A stretch of 64,000 bases of DNA from positions 1,984,001 to 2,048,000 of the forward strand of contig CAWAIF010000003.1 in NCBI GenBank assembly GCA_963782055.1. The letters run 5' to 3'. Positions 8,855 to 31,893 of this stretch are shown in pieces. The notes beneath the pieces are model-generated. The model did no database searches. It had not been told where the DNA came from and saw only the letters and a list, made by a program, of their open reading frames with translations. Numbering within the stretch: position 1 is the stretch's first letter; every line of letters begins with the position of its first letter. This stretch comes from an uncultured delta proteobacterium (GTDB lineage: Bacteria > Myxococcota_A > Polyangia > Polyangiales > Polyangiaceae). The position numbers were made by a program, and so were the translations under genes.

Positions 8855-8869
8855 TAGGATGCGCCCATG
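8855..8869 (+). promoter_or_regulatory. Putative -10 box with leaderless start codon (5' exon of intron copy 1)
   Basis: TAGGAT, 6 nt, ATG; no SD. Confidence 0.55.
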
Positions 8870-10906
8870 GTGCGCCGTGAAGAAGCAGGTCGTCCGTCGG
8901 GCATGCCCGACGAACGACCTGCCTCAAGCTGCGCTTCTCCAGCGGGTGAGAGTCCCGCACCGGTAAGCGTCGGAGCGCCGGGTAGCAGGCCCCAGCCGAG
9001 CGGGAGAGATCCCGTCGGCCGAGCGGGGCGTCGAAAGGGTCCACGGACCGAGCGAGCACGCGGGCCGCAACATGAAGTGAAGCTTGCAGCCTCGTCAGAT
9101 CTACAAACCGGGAGCCGAGCCGATCATGTCGCGGCGAAGGCAATATCGGCGGCGCCAGATCCGAAACGCGCCGTCGGTCCCGGCGGGGTAGGGAGCGCAG
9201 CACGCGTGCAAGGAGGAGTGCGGAACTCGGGAGGCCCGTCTGCGTCGCCCTCGTCGGGGCAAGGCGCGTCGTATAAGCCAGAGGCGAAGTCGGCCGCTGC
9301 GCAGCGGGAGTCCGAGGGGGTCACTGTACCGAAGAGCGAGGCGCGAGCTTCGCGAACGAACGCCGTGAAGAACAACGCGGCAGGAGGGAAAGACCCCTGC
9401 AGTGGTCGTGTCGGCGGAGCAGGTAAGCGCGAGGGCATGGCCGGCGAGACCGGTCCCAACCACCCCCATCGGCGACAGCCCATGGACAAAGTGCGACAAC
9501 TGCAACGCCGGCTGTGTGCCGCGGCCAAGCGGCATCCGGAGCGCCGATTCCACGCGCTGTATGACCGCATCGCGAGGCGTGACGTCCTCGCGGAAGCGTG
9601 GAAGCGGGTAAGGAGGAACAAGGGAGCCGCGGGCGTCGATGCCCAGACGATCGCGGCGCTCGAGGTGTACGGAGTGGATCGACTCCTCGGAGAGATCCAT
9701 GACGTGCTCCGTGCAGGCAGGTACCGGCCGGCAGCGGTGCTGCGCCGGTACATCCCGAAGGCCGATGGGAAGAAGCGGCCGCTTGGGATCCCGACGGTCC
9801 GAGACCGGGTGGTGCAGATGGCGACGAAGCTCGTGCTGGAGCCGATCTTCGAGGCGAGCTTTCGCTCGTGCTCGTACGGCTTCCGTATCGGGCGGAGCGC
9901 GACGGACGCCCTGGAGACGCTGAGGAAGCTCGGCGCGAAGGGGTACAACCACGTGCTCGACGCCGACATCCGTGACTACTTCGGGAGCATCGATCACGAC
10001 AAGCTGATGAAGCTCGTCGAGCGGCGCATCTCGGACCGGAGGGTGCTCAAGCTGCTGCGGCAGTGGCTCACGGCGGGGGTGATGGACGAAGGCACGGTGA
10101 CCAACCCCTCCAGCGGCACGCCGCAGGGCGGGGTGATCTCGCCGCTGCTCTCGAACATCTACCTCGCCGTGCTCGACGACGTGTGGACGAAGCGGTGCGC
10201 GCATCTTGGCGAGCTGGTTCGTTATGCGGACGACTTCGTCGTGATGTGCAGGACGAAGCGTGACGTCGACGAGGCCGAGCTTCGCGTGAAGCACGTGATG
10301 ACGCGACTCGGGCTCGAGCTGCACCCGGACAAGACGAGGAAGCTGGACCTCTCCTGGGGTAAGAAGGGGTTCGACTTCCTCGGCTGCCACCTGCGGAAAC
10401 GCTTGAGCGGGTCCATCTGGGAGAGGTCGCGCAAACGCGTGTACTTCCTCCAGCGCTGGCCATCGGCTCGCGCGATGAAGCGGATCCGGCAGCGCGTGAG
10501 GGACCTCACCCCGCGATCACGCTGCCACGCGGACCTGCGCGACGTCGTCGCGCAGCTCAACCCCGTGCTGCGTGGCTGGGGCGAGTACTTTCGCACCGGG
10601 AACGCCGACGTGAAGTTCAACCGACTCGACGAGTACGTGTACGAACGGCTTCGAGCGCTGCGCCTGAAACGGGCCGGCTCGAAGCTCAAGGCCGGACAAG
10701 CCGAGCGCTGGACCCGCGACTACTTCGTCGAAGGCTTCGGGCTCCACCGCCTGCGCGGGACCATCCGCTACCCGGAGGCCGCGTAATGCCGCGTCACGAG
10801 AGACCACCGGTAAGCCGTGTGCGGGAAATCCGCACGCACGGTTTGAGAGGGGGTCTTGACTCCAACCGCCGCCGTAGGGCGGCCAAGGTGTAAGGATCTA
10901 CCAATG
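8870..10906 (+). mobile_element. Group II intron copy 1 (2037 nt), inserted after the host ATG
   Basis: 5' GTGCG; domain V 10812-10844 with AGC triad; domain VI with bulged A10900; RT ORF; boundaries fixed by comparison with copy 2. Confidence 0.95.
9482..10786 (+). CDS. ltrA: Group II intron RT/maturase without endonuclease domain (frame open from ATG 8867)
   Basis: RPLGIPTVRDR, DADIRDYF, GTPQGGVISPLL, YADD, FDFLG, domain X LNPVLRGWGEYF; no HNH tail. Confidence 0.96.
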   Translation: MDKVRQLQRRLCAAAKRHPERRFHALYDRIARRDVLAEAWKRVRRNKGAAGVDAQTIAALEVYGVDRLLGEIHDVLRAGRYRPAAVLRRYIPKADGKKRPLGIPTVRDRVVQMATKLVLEPIFEASFRSCSYGFRIGRSATDALETLRKLGAKGYNHVLDADIRDYFGSIDHDKLMKLVERRISDRRVLKLLRQWLTAGVMDEGTVTNPSSGTPQGGVISPLLSNIYLAVLDDVWTKRCAHLGELVRYADDFVVMCRTKRDVDEAELRVKHVMTRLGLELHPDKTRKLDLSWGKKGFDFLGCHLRKRLSGSIWERSRKRVYFLQRWPSARAMKRIRQRVRDLTPRSRCHADLRDVVAQLNPVLRGWGEYFRTGNADVKFNRLDEYVYERLRALRLKRAGSKLKAGQAERWTRDYFVEGFGLHRLRGTIRYPEAA

Positions 10907-11560
10907 TCGCACTGGGAGCACCGACCCGAGCCGAAGTGGCGTGAGTTCAAGTTCAACCAGCCGTACGCGAAGGGGCTGAAGCGCCTGCGCGAGGAGGTCC
11001 TCGCCAAGACCGACTTCGACCCCGCGACGCTCTGGCAGTGGGGGACGATGCAGGCGATGGCGCTGATCGAGGTGCTCAAGTCCTGCGAGGCGACCTTCGG
11101 CGCGGAGGGGCAGAAGCTGGTGCAGGACGCGCTCCATCGCGTCGGTCAGGACGTCGGCCGGCAGATCCTGGAGGGTGTGGAGATCCCAGACGACCTGACC
11201 GAGACCGAGTTCATCTCCTTCTACGCCACGGTCATCAACCGCATCCCGTACGCCTCGCTGGAGGCGCCGCGCATCGACGCCGAGGGCAAGGCGACCTTCG
11301 ACATCCTCTGGTGCCCGCACCAGGACCACTACGGCGCCTTCGACTGCCGCGTGCAGCGCTACTTCGTGCAGGGGATGATCGACGCCGCGCGCGAGCACGC
11401 CGCGGGCTTCGGCTTCGAGGTGCGCTTTGACACGACGATCCCGTCGGGGTCGCCGACGTGCCACTTCACGATGTGGAAGCCGACGGAGGAGGAGCGCGCC
11501 GCGTGGGAGGGCACGACGAAGCTGATCGAGGACAAGGCGCTCGCCCGCGCGAAGCGGTAG
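10904..11560 (+). CDS. Hypothetical protein, host gene of intron copy 1 (possible V4R/ATC-hydrolase-like fold)
   Basis: 218-aa ORF with WCPH, DC and CHF motifs; ATG supplied by the intron end or by 8867 after splicing. Confidence 0.75.
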   Translation: MSHWEHRPEPKWREFKFNQPYAKGLKRLREEVLAKTDFDPATLWQWGTMQAMALIEVLKSCEATFGAEGQKLVQDALHRVGQDVGRQILEGVEIPDDLTETEFISFYATVINRIPYASLEAPRIDAEGKATFDILWCPHQDHYGAFDCRVQRYFVQGMIDAAREHAAGFGFEVRFDTTIPSGSPTCHFTMWKPTEEERAAWEGTTKLIEDKALARAKR

Positions 11561-18591: not shown

Positions 18592-18607
18592 TGGCACGTA
18601 GCCTGCT
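18592..18607 (+). promoter_or_regulatory. sigma54 -24/-12 promoter of the intron-2 host gene
   Basis: TGGCACGTAGCCTGCT (GG-N10-GC); ATG at 18621. Confidence 0.7.
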
Positions 18608-18623
18608 AACGGTCGTGCCCATG

Positions 18624-20660
18624 GTGCGCCGTGAAGAAGCAGGTCGTCCGTCGGGCATGCCCGACGAACGACCTGCCTCAAGCTGCGCTTCTCCAGCGGG
18701 TGAGAGTCCCGCACCGGTAAGCGTCGGAGCGCCGGGTAGCAGGCCCCAGCCGAGCGGGAGAGATCCCGTCGGCCGAGCGGGGCGTCGAAAGGGTCCACGG
18801 ACCGAGCGAGCACGCGGGCCGCAACATGAAGTGAAGCTTGCAGCCTCGTCAGATCTACAAACCGGGAGCCGAGCCGATCATGTCGCGGCGAAGGCAATAT
18901 CGGCGGCGCCAGATCCGAAACGCGCCGTCGGTCCCGGCGGGGTAGGGAGCGCAGCACGCGTGCAAGGAGGAGTGCGGAACTCGGGAGGCCCGTCTGCGTC
19001 GCCCTCGTCGGGGCAAGGCGCGTCGTATAAGCCAGAGGCGAAGTCGGCCGCTGCGCAGCGGGAGTCCGAGGGGGTCACTGTACCGAAGAGCGAGGCGCGA
19101 GCTTCGCGAACGAACGCCGTGAAGAACAACGCGGCAGGAGGGAAAGACCCCTGCAGTGGTCGTGTCGGCGGAGCAGGTAAGCGCGAGGGCATGGCCGGCG
19201 AGACCGGTCCCAACCACCCCCATCGGCGACAGCCCATGGACAAAGTGCGACAACTGCAACGCCGGCTGTGTGCCGCGGCCAAGCGGCATCCGGAGCGCCG
19301 ATTCCACGCGCTGTATGACCGCATCGCGAGGCGTGACGTCCTCGCGGAAGCGTGGAAGCGGGTAAGGAGGAACAAGGGAGCCGCGGGCGTCGATGCCCAG
19401 ACGATCGCGGCGCTCGAGGTGTACGGAGTGGATCGACTCCTCGGAGAGATCCATGACGTGCTCCGTGCAGGCAGGTACCGGCCGGCAGCGGTGCTGCGCC
19501 GGTACATCCCGAAGGCCGATGGGAAGAAGCGGCCGCTTGGGATCCCGACGGTCCGAGACCGGGTGGTGCAGATGGCGACGAAGCTCGTGCTGGAGCCGAT
19601 CTTCGAGGCGAGCTTTCGCTCGTGCTCGTACGGCTTCCGTATCGGGCGGAGCGCGACGGACGCCCTGGAGACGCTGAGGAAGCTCGGCGCGAAGGGGTAC
19701 AACCACGTGCTCGACGCCGACATCCGTGACTACTTCGGGAGCATCGATCACGACAAGCTGATGAAGCTCGTCGAGCGGCGCATCTCGGACCGGAGGGTGC
19801 TCAAGCTGCTGCGGCAGTGGCTCACGGCGGGGGTGATGGACGAAGGCACGGTGACCAACCCCTCCAGCGGCACGCCGCAGGGCGGGGTGATCTCGCCGCT
19901 GCTCTCGAACATCTACCTCGCCGTGCTCGACGACGTGTGGACGAAGCGGTGCGCGCATCTTGGCGAGCTGGTTCGTTATGCGGACGACTTCGTCGTGATG
20001 TGCAGGACGAAGCGTGACGTCGACGAGGCCGAGCTTCGCGTGAAGCACGTGATGACGCGACTCGGGCTCGAGCTGCACCCGGACAAGACGAGGAAGCTGG
20101 ACCTCTCCTGGGGTAAGAAGGGGTTCGACTTCCTCGGCTGCCACCTGCGGAAACGCTTGAGCGGGTCCATCTGGGAGAGGTCGCGCAAACGCGTGTACTT
20201 CCTCCAGCGCTGGCCATCGGCTCGCGCGATGAAGCGGATCCGGCAGCGCGTGAGGGACCTCACCCCGCGATCACGCTGCCACGCGGACCTGCGCGACGTC
20301 GTCGCGCAGCTCAACCCCGTGCTGCGTGGCTGGGGCGAGTACTTTCGCACCGGGAACGCCGACGTGAAGTTCAACCGACTCGACGAGTACGTGTACGAAC
20401 GGCTTCGAGCGCTGCGCCTGAAACGGGCCGGCTCGAAGCTCAAGGCCGGACAAGCCGAGCGCTGGACCCGCGACTACTTCGTCGAAGGCTTCGGGCTCCA
20501 CCGCCTGCGCGGGACCATCCGCTACCCGGAGGCCGCGTAATGCCGCGTCACGAGAGACCACCGGTAAGCCGTGTGCGGGAAATCCGCACGCACGGTTTGA
20601 GAGGGGGTCTTGACTCCAACCGCCGCCGTAGGGCGGCCAAGGTGTAAGGATCTACCAATG
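18624..20660 (+). mobile_element. Group II intron copy 2 (2037 nt), inserted after the host ATG
   Basis: Matches copy 1 at offset 9754; shared internal ORF translations are identical. Confidence 0.95.
19236..20540 (+). CDS. ltrA: Group II intron RT/maturase (frame open from ATG 18621)
   Basis: Same protein as copy 1; YADD. Confidence 0.96.
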   Translation: MDKVRQLQRRLCAAAKRHPERRFHALYDRIARRDVLAEAWKRVRRNKGAAGVDAQTIAALEVYGVDRLLGEIHDVLRAGRYRPAAVLRRYIPKADGKKRPLGIPTVRDRVVQMATKLVLEPIFEASFRSCSYGFRIGRSATDALETLRKLGAKGYNHVLDADIRDYFGSIDHDKLMKLVERRISDRRVLKLLRQWLTAGVMDEGTVTNPSSGTPQGGVISPLLSNIYLAVLDDVWTKRCAHLGELVRYADDFVVMCRTKRDVDEAELRVKHVMTRLGLELHPDKTRKLDLSWGKKGFDFLGCHLRKRLSGSIWERSRKRVYFLQRWPSARAMKRIRQRVRDLTPRSRCHADLRDVVAQLNPVLRGWGEYFRTGNADVKFNRLDEYVYERLRALRLKRAGSKLKAGQAERWTRDYFVEGFGLHRLRGTIRYPEAA

Positions 20661-21068
20661 CGCTCCCTTCTCCTCGCTCTCCTCTCGGCGTCCTCCCTCG
20701 CGCTCGGCGCATGCGGCGGCGTGGCCGTGGACACCTCCTCCGACGCCGGCGCGGGCGCGGACGGCGGTCACGACGCCGCGACCTCCCCCGTCACGTGTCA
20801 GGGCAAGACGTGCGGCGCGGGGGAGGTGTGCGTGGTCACCACCTCCGGCGGCGGCCCGTGCCTCCTGCCTGACGACGCGGGGGTCTGTCCCGACGGCACC
20901 CACACCACCGGCTGCTGCGACAACACGACCACCGGCTACGCGTGCAAGCCGCTCCCCGCCGCATGCAAGGGCAGCCTCGCGTGCCCGTGCGCGGACACGC
21001 TCTGCCAGTGCGGCGGCTGCCAGGTCGCCGACGCGGGCGTGCTCGCGTGCCAGTGCCTGTATCCCTGA
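20658..21068 (+). CDS. Cys-rich lipoprotein, host gene of intron copy 2
   Basis: Complete signal peptide MRSLLLALLSASSLALGAC begins exactly at the intron-terminal ATG. Confidence 0.85.
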   Translation: MRSLLLALLSASSLALGACGGVAVDTSSDAGAGADGGHDAATSPVTCQGKTCGAGEVCVVTTSGGGPCLLPDDAGVCPDGTHTTGCCDNTTTGYACKPLPAACKGSLACPCADTLCQCGGCQVADAGVLACQCLYP

Positions 21069-31820: not shown

Positions 31821-31893
31821 GGGGCCGTAGCTCAGCTGGGAGAGCGCATCCATGGCATGGATGAGGTCAGGGGTTCGATCCCCCTCGGCTCCA
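31821..31893 (+). tRNA. tRNA-Ala(GGC)
   Basis: Cloverleaf; G3:U70; anticodon arm CATCC-ATGGCAT-GGATG; GTTCGATC; CCA not encoded. Confidence 0.96.

Follow-up and report, generated by a model that had tools for sequence, protein, structure and literature searches.

The window analysed here, a stretch of 64,000 nucleotides from an uncultured delta proteobacterium of the Polyangiaceae, carries two copies of one group II intron (Table 1). Read directly from the sequence, the junctions are GCGCCCATG|GTGCG...CTACCAATG|TCGCAC for copy 1 and GTGCCCATG|GTGCG...CTACCAATG|CGCTCC for copy 2; the two introns are identical and each is 2037 nt long. The genome as a whole contains nine copies. Seven of them are full-length and 100% identical and two further ones are interrupted by IS elements, which indicates that the intron has been active recently.

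Table 1. Features of the two intron loci, in positions of the window.
Feature	Position	Strand	Basis
TAGGAT, -10-like box, 6 nt 5' of the copy 1 host start codon	8855..8860	+	sequence reading
Host start codon, copy 1 (IBS1 core)	8867..8869	+	ATG shared by orthologues; pairs with EBS1
639-codon open frame that starts at the host ATG and crosses domains I-III to reach the RT/maturase	8867..10786	+	ORF translation
Group II intron copy 1, GUGCG...CUACCAAUG	8870..10906	+	Rfam; genome copies; covariation for the splice sites
Predicted EBS1, CAUG in hairpin loop AUCAUGUCG, intron nt 256-259	9125..9128	+	covariation with the flank
Predicted EBS3, G, intron nt 322	9191..9191	+	covariation with the first base after the terminal xTG
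Conserved internal ATG in GAGGGCATGG, 15 codons before the RT core	9438..9440	+	in frame in nearly all relatives
RT (RVT_1) and maturase (GIIM) core	9482..10786	+	Pfam: RVT_1 4.9e-37, GIIM 5.8e-17
Domain V	10811..10845	+	RF00029; consensus fold, 26 sequences
Domain VI, predicted bulged branch A at 10900	10849..10902	+	consensus fold, compensatory changes in 9/24 pairs
Terminal AUG borne by the intron, in frame with the host ORF	10904..10906	+	3' splice site placed after AUG by EBS3 covariation
Host gene 1 from codon 2, weak match to ATC_hydrolase	10907..11560	+	Pfam; orthologues
TGGCACG-N4-CTGCT, presumed sigma-54-type -24/-12 motif, 13 nt 5' of the copy 2 host ATG	18592..18607	+	sequence reading
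Host start codon, copy 2	18621..18623	+	sequence reading
Group II intron copy 2, identical to copy 1	18624..20660	+	sequence reading
Terminal ATG and host gene 2, a 136-aa lipoprotein-type precursor	20658..21068	+	sequence reading, orthologues

Both copies match RF02003 (77.1 bits), RF02005 (55.8 bits) and RF00029 (44 bits) in Rfam, all above the gathering thresholds, and so possess the D1-D4 ribozyme core and the domain V that characterize group II introns. Domains I-III amount to 568 nt in total and include a variable hairpin of about 40 nt at intron nt 15-56. The CAUG loop of this hairpin was considered as a second exon mimic and discarded, since relatives vary in the hairpin and do not share the CAUG. 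Domain V is nearly invariant across 26 sequences. In the predicted fold of domain VI, two base pairs and a 4-nt tail lie below the bulged A, as expected of a branch adenosine, and the 3' strand, AAGGAUCU, is Shine-Dalgarno-like. A motif of this kind precedes the terminal AUG in 50 of the 80 related introns. Domain VI was also considered as an outward leaderless promoter (TAGGAT-N6-ATG); a TANNNT motif occurs in only 30 of the 80 introns and the pairing of domain VI accounts for the sequence, leaving this as a minor possibility. Domain IV encodes a protein with reverse transcriptase and maturase domains. An endonuclease or HNH domain was not detected in it by Pfam, and just 34 residues follow GIIM. 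The 5' end is GUGCG in the main group and UUGCG in an actinobacterial subgroup. Group II introns have GUGYG...AY termini; here all 80 introns finish with A/G-U-G. This UG terminus is a deviation at the end and not a failure of the fold.

All nine junctions in this genome lie immediately behind a start codon, which is ATG in eight cases and GTG in one. The same holds for 66 of the 67 usable 5' flanks among 80 related loci from many phyla (including Myxococcota, Acidobacteriota, Actinomycetota, Planctomycetota and Proteobacteria), so that what the initial annotation had observed for the two copies in the window, insertion directly after the start codons of unrelated genes, extends well beyond the window. 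Such placement at start codons is far above chance. L085, whose 5' end is mislocated, was left out of the counts, and the loci without a usable 5' flank are L084-L087, L029, L042, L043, L057, L067, L068, L070, L076, L081 and L095. Tabulation of the copies revealed no insertion that could be called a non-start site: the single odd flank, AGG in L071, is preceded by a TAGAAT-N6 box. At the other end, the terminal triplet is ATG in 74 introns and GTG in six, never UUG, and none of the 80 has lost it. With the insertion point falling precisely at the boundary of start codon and codon 2, and with AUG or GUG as the final three bases of the intron itself, insertion rebuilds the sequence of start codon plus codon 2. 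The converse assignment, with the 5' triplet borne by the intron and the 3' triplet by the host, was dismissed: the 5' triplet varies within families (copy 9 of this genome has GTG; L091 has GTG and L092 ATG) and the 3' triplet is constant. Covariation between position -4 and EBS1 likewise puts the 5' triplet in IBS1.

The host genes are many and unrelated (HEAT-repeat, lipoprotein-like, unknown) and are not housekeeping genes. Excision of the 2037 nt mends each host ORF in the window, as had been noted; with copy 2 removed, the sequence reads MRSLLLALLSASSLALGACGG, a lipoprotein-type signal. All seven intron-less orthologues of host gene 1 begin with M-(A/P)-H-W at the ATG equivalent to 8867, and at the orthologous sites that are empty the sequence is ATG|GCG CAC, which contains no added G. 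The initial annotation had argued that splicing at AT|G would add a G and throw both genes out of frame. The added G stands, and copy 2 would indeed have no start in the signal-peptide frame back to a TAA. For copy 1 the argument is incomplete, as an upstream ATG at 8859, which had been overlooked, would then enter the frame. Use of this ATG by host gene 1 is nevertheless disfavoured, since the seven orthologues all start at the equivalent of 8867.

The splice sites can be placed by covariation between the intron and its flanks. Nucleotide 258 of the predicted EBS1 is Watson-Crick complementary to flank position -3 in 62 of 64 introns and nucleotide 259 to position -4 in 49 of 63 (59 of 63 if wobble pairs are counted), and the G of xTG is paired by a C that does not vary in the loop. 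Inspection by eye of a 13-nt internal loop before the EBS1 stem gave no consistent partner for EBS3; a column scan identified nt 322: in 60 of 65 introns it can form a Watson-Crick pair with the base that follows the terminal xTG, and all four bases occur. In this genome the base in question is C at eight copies and T at one. Since it covaries with EBS3, outside the EBS1 loop, and may be any of the four bases, it is most simply read as the first base of the 3' exon. An EBS3 that is separate from the EBS1 loop and pairs with +1 corresponds to IIB-type recognition. Taken together, the EBS1 and EBS3 covariation indicates that the intron ends in AUG and not in AY, the end that had been proposed from the two copies and that more than 60 independent insertions also support. 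A 3' end directly after AUG or GUG is supported by geometry as well, the predicted branch A lying 6 nt from it, which is the usual distance in group II introns.

With canonical boundaries the intron would instead be read as G-GUGCG...CCAAU, the start codon being split as AU|G, with the 5' G and the 3' AU retained and the G taken as the first base of the 3' exon. Such boundaries have the appeal of giving G...AY termini in the main group and in the UUGCG subgroup alike (xTG|TTGCG becoming GUUGCG...AAU). The IIA-type delta-delta' rule is compatible with a CAU-N helix in the AU|G register and would suit them too. They are hard to reconcile, however, with the covariation of nt 322 with the base that follows xTG, with the pairing of the invariant EBS1-loop C to the G of xTG and with the distance of 6 nt from the branch A to that same G. 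We regard them as very improbable.

Beyond these contacts little of the target appears to be read by the RNA. With the first 420 nt scanned for an EBS2-IBS2 pairing, no D1 column covaried with positions -5 to -15 above background; the covariation scan found no partner for +2 to +6 either, and identical copies in this genome have unrelated bases at -5 to -9. The predicted RNA pairing thus covers only five target bases: an anticodon-like EBS1 loop (C-A-U/C-N) would read N-(A/G)-U-G and EBS3 the first base of codon 2. The specialization for translation start sites suggested in the initial annotation is upheld by this covariation and by more than 60 independent insertions.

A TANNNT box is found 5-8 nt upstream of the target start codon in 62 of 67 flanks, a spacing that matches the geometry of leaderless promoters. 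The same box occurs at only 516 of the 46,636 CATG sites (1.1%) in this genome; an ORF of at least 150 codons follows TANNNT-N6-ATG in 265 of 392 cases genome-wide. Four of the seven intron-less orthologues of host gene 1 have a strict TANNNT box, and the same ATG is kept. The strict box is absent at copy 2, which is preceded by a motif that we take to be of the sigma-54 type, and two orthologues of its host gene (L113 and L114) carry GGCAC-N5-CTGCT 12-13 nt before their ATG. With one target bearing a sigma-54-type box instead, there is no single DNA motif common to all targets.

It might be that the leaderless context is not sensed at insertion, any N-ATG-N site being entered and the copies that survive or spread being those at promoter-adjacent starts. 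A pairing that spans 5 nt, the lack of a D1 column covarying with -5 to -15, a box spacing that ranges from 5 to 8 nt and the sigma-54-type box at one target would all sit comfortably with such sorting after the event. Yet dead-end copies at internal or leadered ATGs should last for a while, and none of the 67 flanks of intact or nearly intact copies is of this kind; so few of the many CATG sites in this genome have the box, and L092 retains it despite an EBS1 mismatch at -4. Sorting by survival is therefore judged unlikely.

Followed from the captured start codon, the frame passes through domains I-III and reaches the RT without a stop in 50 of 64 introns; in 52 of 64 it is the RT frame. Over 555 nt, the mean number of stops is 0.51 in frame 0 as against 5.28 and 5.22 in the other two, and 39 of 48 clusters (90% identity) have no frame-0 stop at all. 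Many relatives lack a start codon at the position that aligns with the M of MDKV. The fused frame is absent from 14 of the 64 introns, among them the whole UUGCG-starting actinobacterial subgroup, where frame 0 stops after 125-187 codons, and several members of the main group. The conventional candidate for the start of the intron protein is the internal ATG (Table 1), which is GTG in L047 and L089; a conserved GAGGGC-ATG/GTG precedes the RT core. Conservation of this internal start even in relatives whose frame 0 is closed, the ability of the actinobacterial relatives to manage without the fused frame and the low-complexity appearance of the encoded 190-residue extension could mean that the open frame has no translational role, the RT being made only from the internal AUG and splicing being ordinary. 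We find this rather unlikely because stops are depleted in one frame only and are missing altogether from most clusters, because the stop-free frame is so often the RT frame, and because siblings with a 1-nt indel (L064, L073 and L092) lose the frame at once. A single such indel suffices to destroy it, so that the frame would easily be broken in the absence of selection.

In yeast mitochondria, introns aI1 and aI2 carry RT ORFs that continue the reading frame of the cox1 exon before them. The intron described here resembles them in that an ORF runs through domains I-III in the frame of the upstream exon and host initiation would be needed. In contrast, aI1 and aI2 are organellar introns of the ML lineage with long upstream exons, whereas the present bacterial intron would have nothing but a start codon as its upstream exon and has a conserved internal start besides. 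To our knowledge, exon-fused intron ORFs are known only from organelles; the present frame would be a bacterial case, in which catalytic RNA doubles as coding sequence.

The terminal AUG or GUG could be kept mainly as an internal mimic of IBS1 that pairs with EBS1 during some step of splicing or mobility, and not as a start codon for the host. Among the D1 columns, nucleotide 258 of EBS1 shows the strongest association with the opening base of the terminal triplet, being C in three of the six GUG-ending introns and in none of the 61 AUG-ending ones, and the incompatible pair of CAC with AUG is seen in 0 of 67 introns. The absence of UUG termini and the lack of the Shine-Dalgarno-like motif in 30 of the 80 introns point the same way. 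However, there are only three CAC introns, all of which also lie behind GTG, so that a shared host preference could produce the CAC/GUG pattern. In addition, the two triplets seen, AUG and GUG, are precisely those in common use as start codons, and we know of no step in group II splicing that needs the intron 3' end on EBS1. As the main reason for the triplet, mimicry of IBS1 seems doubtful.

It is likely, in our estimation, that these elements represent a recently active intron of IIB layout with an endonuclease-less RT/maturase, belonging to a widespread lineage specialized for the start codons of leaderless genes. In the mechanism that we propose, transcription would start at the A of the host ATG, and the 5' exon would be just AUG; for copy 1, the RNA probably has no 5' exon beyond the host start codon. 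Pairing of this AUG with EBS1 would permit splicing that restores the leaderless mRNA. With only 3 nt of 5' exon and three base pairs to hold it, ordinary group II exon ligation has a poor substrate, hence efficient splicing is not assured, and whether the ribozyme splices with so short an exon becomes a testable question. Ribosomes on the 5'-terminal AUG of unspliced RNA would translate domains I-III into the RT, which amounts to borrowing the promoter and start codon of the host for the intron protein. The terminal AUG would serve as a spare start, as an EBS1-pairing mimic of IBS1, or as both. An unspliced copy might then be nearly neutral, as the initial annotation suggested, though only 50 of the 80 introns have a Shine-Dalgarno-like motif ahead of the terminal AUG. 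As with other endonuclease-less introns, new copies would be made at replication forks, where the intron would reverse-splice into the template of the lagging strand.

All nine copies are co-oriented with replication, whereas candidate leaderless starts divide 286:298 (P about 0.0016); for this test the origin and terminus were placed from a GC skew that is noisy and from a dnaA gene on a different contig. The initial annotation had passed over this replication-strand bias, along with the leaderless-promoter context and the exon-fused frame. Eight soil metatranscriptome runs (X1-X8) contain 0.49-0.72 of the sampled words (at least half in five runs). Contigs from X1, X3, X4 and X5 match only 8918-10852, at 100% identity, free of joints and short of the junctions and exons; they span the intron interior only and have no bearing on splicing or on transcript starts or ends.

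A more tentative proposal, to which we would give somewhat less than an even chance, is that the lineage is built around leaderless starts, with an initiator-anticodon-like loop, targeting to the transcription start, a read-through RT and a replacement AUG. The site would then be found as melted promoter DNA on the lagging-strand template or as a transcript 5' end, and not by its DNA sequence. About 570 nt would be both catalytic RNA and coding sequence, ribozyme folding (EBS1 on AUG) and translation would be mutually exclusive and act as a switch, and the replacement AUG given to the host would also dock on EBS1.

No description of this lineage was found in the literature searched, in which the work of Michel, Costa, Doucet and Ferat (2007, Biochimie) is represented by passages in PMC12584367. 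The nearest published lineage is the endonuclease-bearing IIB1 clade at start or stop codons described in those passages, whose terminal intron base rebuilds the codon on insertion (groEL UAA becoming UAG). This is in line with the remark in the initial annotation on introns that insert at translation signals, although the lineage is a different one. Monophyletic bacterial introns tied to translation signals, with a terminal base that rebuilds the codon, are common to both. As far as the IIB1/CL1 clade is described there, it differs in its C-terminal endonuclease, which is missing here. Other differences are the brevity of domains I-III (only 568 nt here), the many unrelated targets and the combination of 5-nt recognition, leaderless-promoter context and fused frame. 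The present intron lies at start codons in 9/9 copies, in genes other than housekeeping ones.

Class C (IIC) introns insert after intrinsic terminators or attC sites, as set out in excerpts from PMC4424553. On that account they share with the present intron the lack of an endonuclease, a very short EBS1 together with EBS3, no EBS2 and little sequence specificity, and in neither is the site set by a long homing sequence, an adjoining functional signal in the DNA or RNA taking that part. The flanks differ, being promoter boxes and ATG here and not inverted repeats followed by Ts. Unlike class C, the ribozyme here matches the Rfam D1D4-4 and D1D4-6 models, and its 3' end is CUACCAAUG. A protein limited to RT and maturase is found as well in RmInt1 and in the endonuclease-less classes D, E and F (excerpts from PMC3552965 and PMC4424553). 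The orientation bias (9/9 co-oriented) would likewise fit replication-fork priming; RmInt1 itself homes to a long specific site by means of EBS1, EBS2 and EBS3, unlike the intron here.

Five paired bases plus a transcription start would constitute a third targeting logic for group II introns, beside long homing sites and terminator stem-loops. The introns would mark leaderless genes in many phyla, and an element with no requirement beyond N-AUG-N, after whose insertion a start codon is still in place, is an unusual and possible scaffold for gene targeting. Finally, the hosts of class F and unclassified introns named in the excerpts from PMC3552965 (Sorangium, Solibacter and Myxococcus) overlap with the hosts found here, an overlap that we treat only as a lead.

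On sequence evidence, both 2037-nt insertions in the window are group II introns (see table below). The Rfam D1-D4 models and the domain V/VI model give above-threshold scores in both copies, and the long intron ORF carries RVT_1 and GIIM domains, with no space left for an endonuclease domain. When 26 related 3' ends are folded to a consensus, domain V is recovered together with a domain VI bearing a bulged A, and 9 of the 24 pairs show compensatory changes. The same assembly holds seven full-length copies (100% identity) and two broken ones. The claim of the initial annotation that both window copies lie directly behind a start codon is borne out, all nine 5' junctions of this genome being alike (CATG in eight, CGTG in one); the first base 3' of the intron is C in eight cases and T in one. 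Of the nine frames downstream, seven or eight are plausible genes. They are of unrelated kinds and include a HEAT-repeat protein, several signal-peptide proteins and a weak ATC_hydrolase match.

Features located in the window
Feature	Window position	Strand	Remark
Group II intron copy 1	8870-10906	+	2037 nt
Group II intron copy 2	18624-20660	+	2037 nt, identical to copy 1
tRNA gene	31821-31893		Rfam RF00005, 61 bits; no relation to the intron finding

In one of the two broken copies (L112, G000:C3:5377628-5379141), domain VI is interrupted at intron nt 2006. The inserted element is 1.5 kb long and codes for an IS66-family transposase (DDE_Tnp_IS66, 1.5e-34), and its junctions show a duplication of ten intron bases (nt 1997-2006). 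The other (L111, G000:C3:2503251-2504075 and 2517652-2518302), the only copy here behind GTG, has nt 1-772 joined to nt 1338-1392 and then passes into an element carrying an rve integrase; the 3' part of this copy (nt 1387-2037) is found 14 kb off, inverted. From its sequence, this arrangement suggests an inversion between two IS copies of opposite orientation. There are weak matches to DnaA-family ATPases (PF00308, 38 bits) at C3:2504274 and, on the other strand, C3:2520224.

With one genome per species, the RT has at least 577 relatives. The best 80 (56-90% identity) come from Myxococcota, Acidobacteriota, Planctomycetota, Actinomycetota, Beta- and Gammaproteobacteria, Gemmatimonadota, Spirochaetota and others. 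Every one of the 80 located 3' ends, the window copy included, is ATG (74) or GTG (6), mostly as CTACCAATG. Of 67 5' flanks of at least 45 nt (nine from this genome and 58 other loci, the mislocated L085 being left out), 66 end in ATG or GTG. The sole exception, L071, has AGG behind a perfect TAGAAT-N6, and its siblings L072 and L073 are located behind ATG; the AGG may be what is left of a host start codon after the intron's own ATG took over.

Since an xTG stands at both intron ends, sequence alone allows three splicing registers, and it is covariation that decides between them. EBS1 is a hairpin loop, C-U-C-A-U-N-U-C-A (CAUG at window 9125-9128). In 62 of 64 introns its third base can pair with the start codon's first base, and a CAC loop is seen only where the start codon is GTG. 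For its fourth base the partner is flank position -4, in 49 of 63 introns, or 59 of 63 when wobble is allowed. The base that directly follows the terminal xTG is the Watson-Crick complement of EBS3 (intron nt 322, window G9191) in 60 of 65 introns, and all four bases are represented. The 5' exon thus ends with the start codon and the 3' exon opens with codon 2. Together with the uniform xTG 3' ends, this upholds the earlier proposal that the intron ends in AUG and not in AY; on this evidence its terminus is truly A/G-U-G. Six bases follow the branch A. The 5' triplet varies within families and the 3' triplet is constant, indicating that the latter belongs to the intron. The terminal triplet is always EBS1-compatible, and C at nt 258 is found in three of six GUG-ending introns and in none of 61 AUG-ending ones. 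Of 80 introns, 50 have an SD-like 4-mer, part of the D6 helix, 5-10 nt upstream of their terminal start codon. The covariation scan found no pairing partner for flank positions -5 to -15 or +2 to +6, and EBS2 is, as judged from the first 420 nt of the intron, absent.

An upstream ATG at 8859 would rescue the copy 1 gene under canonical splicing. However, intron-less orthologues start at the later ATG, all seven reading M-(A/P)-H-W from it, so that ATG 8859 is not the true gene start and the codon taken by copy 1 is the real one, as originally supposed. Orthologues of the copy 2 host gene start ATG CGN.

The target sites resemble leaderless promoters. Of the 67 flanks, 62 have a TANNNT box 5-8 nt ahead of the start codon (spacing 6 nt in 39, 7 nt in 15, 8 nt in seven), against a genome-wide background at CATG of 516 in 46,636 sites (1.1%). 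In this genome, an ORF of at least 150 codons follows TANNNT-N6-ATG in 265 of 392 cases, versus 20-35% at other spacings, indicating that leaderless-type starts are real and a common gene class here. Transcription of the target genes would start at the A of the host ATG. Copy 2 has no strict TANNNT box and carries TGGCACG-N4-CTGCT 13 nt upstream instead (window 18592-18607); its host orthologues L113 and L114 have GGCAC-N5-CTGCT ending 12-13 nt before ATG. We take this motif to be a sigma-54-type -24/-12 promoter, from which transcription is expected to start at or next to the ATG, and these would be leaderless or near-leaderless sigma-54 genes. On the large contig, about 580 TANNNT-N6-8-ATG sites lead into an ORF of 150 codons or more; 134 of them also match the intron's C at -4 and C/T at +1 and are unoccupied.

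On the large contig, which does not carry dnaA (found on a different contig), the cumulative GC skew reaches its maximum near 3.5 Mb. If the terminus is placed there, all nine copies are co-oriented with replication, while candidate leaderless starts split 286:298 (P ~0.0016 for the intron bias). The bias is consistent with reverse splicing into the template of the lagging strand, a route that passages of PMC4424553 describe for introns lacking an endonuclease.

Full-text literature searches turned up no description of such a start-codon lineage, and passages from two reviews or surveys of bacterial introns contained none. The IIB1 start/stop-codon clade (Michel 2007), as portrayed in excerpts of PMC12584367, encodes an endonuclease, carries an insertion of 300-700 nt in domain I and brings an SD and start codon of its own; judged by that description, the present lineage lacks the clade's defining features. 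It is closer in logic to class C introns, with which it shares a short EBS1, EBS3, no EBS2 and a functional signal adjoining the site.

In 50 of 64 introns the frame set by the captured start codon (frame 0) runs open across domains I-III and on into the RT, for 625-680 codons in all, and the remaining two frames reach a stop after 3-76 codons. Of 48 clusters at 90% identity, 39 are free of frame-0 stops over the first 555 nt; on average this length holds 0.51 stops in frame 0 versus 5.28 and 5.22 in the other two. Exceptions are the 1-nt-indel siblings L064, L073 and L092, the loci L031, L036, L040, L050, L078 and L082, and an actinobacterial subgroup (L083, L088, L096, L099, L100). This subgroup begins UUGCG, with U and not G as first intron base, ends GACUACCAAUG and has neither the variable 5' hairpin nor the fused frame. 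Many relatives have something other than a start codon where the first Met of the RT core aligns, but an ATG (GTG in two) is conserved 15 codons further upstream, which makes internal initiation of the RT possible.

Soil metatranscriptome contigs from small runs of two studies are 100% identical to the intron body (window 8918-10852) and end short of both intron ends. In runs X4 and X5, one contig continues past 10852 into differing sequence, which may be a variant domain VI.
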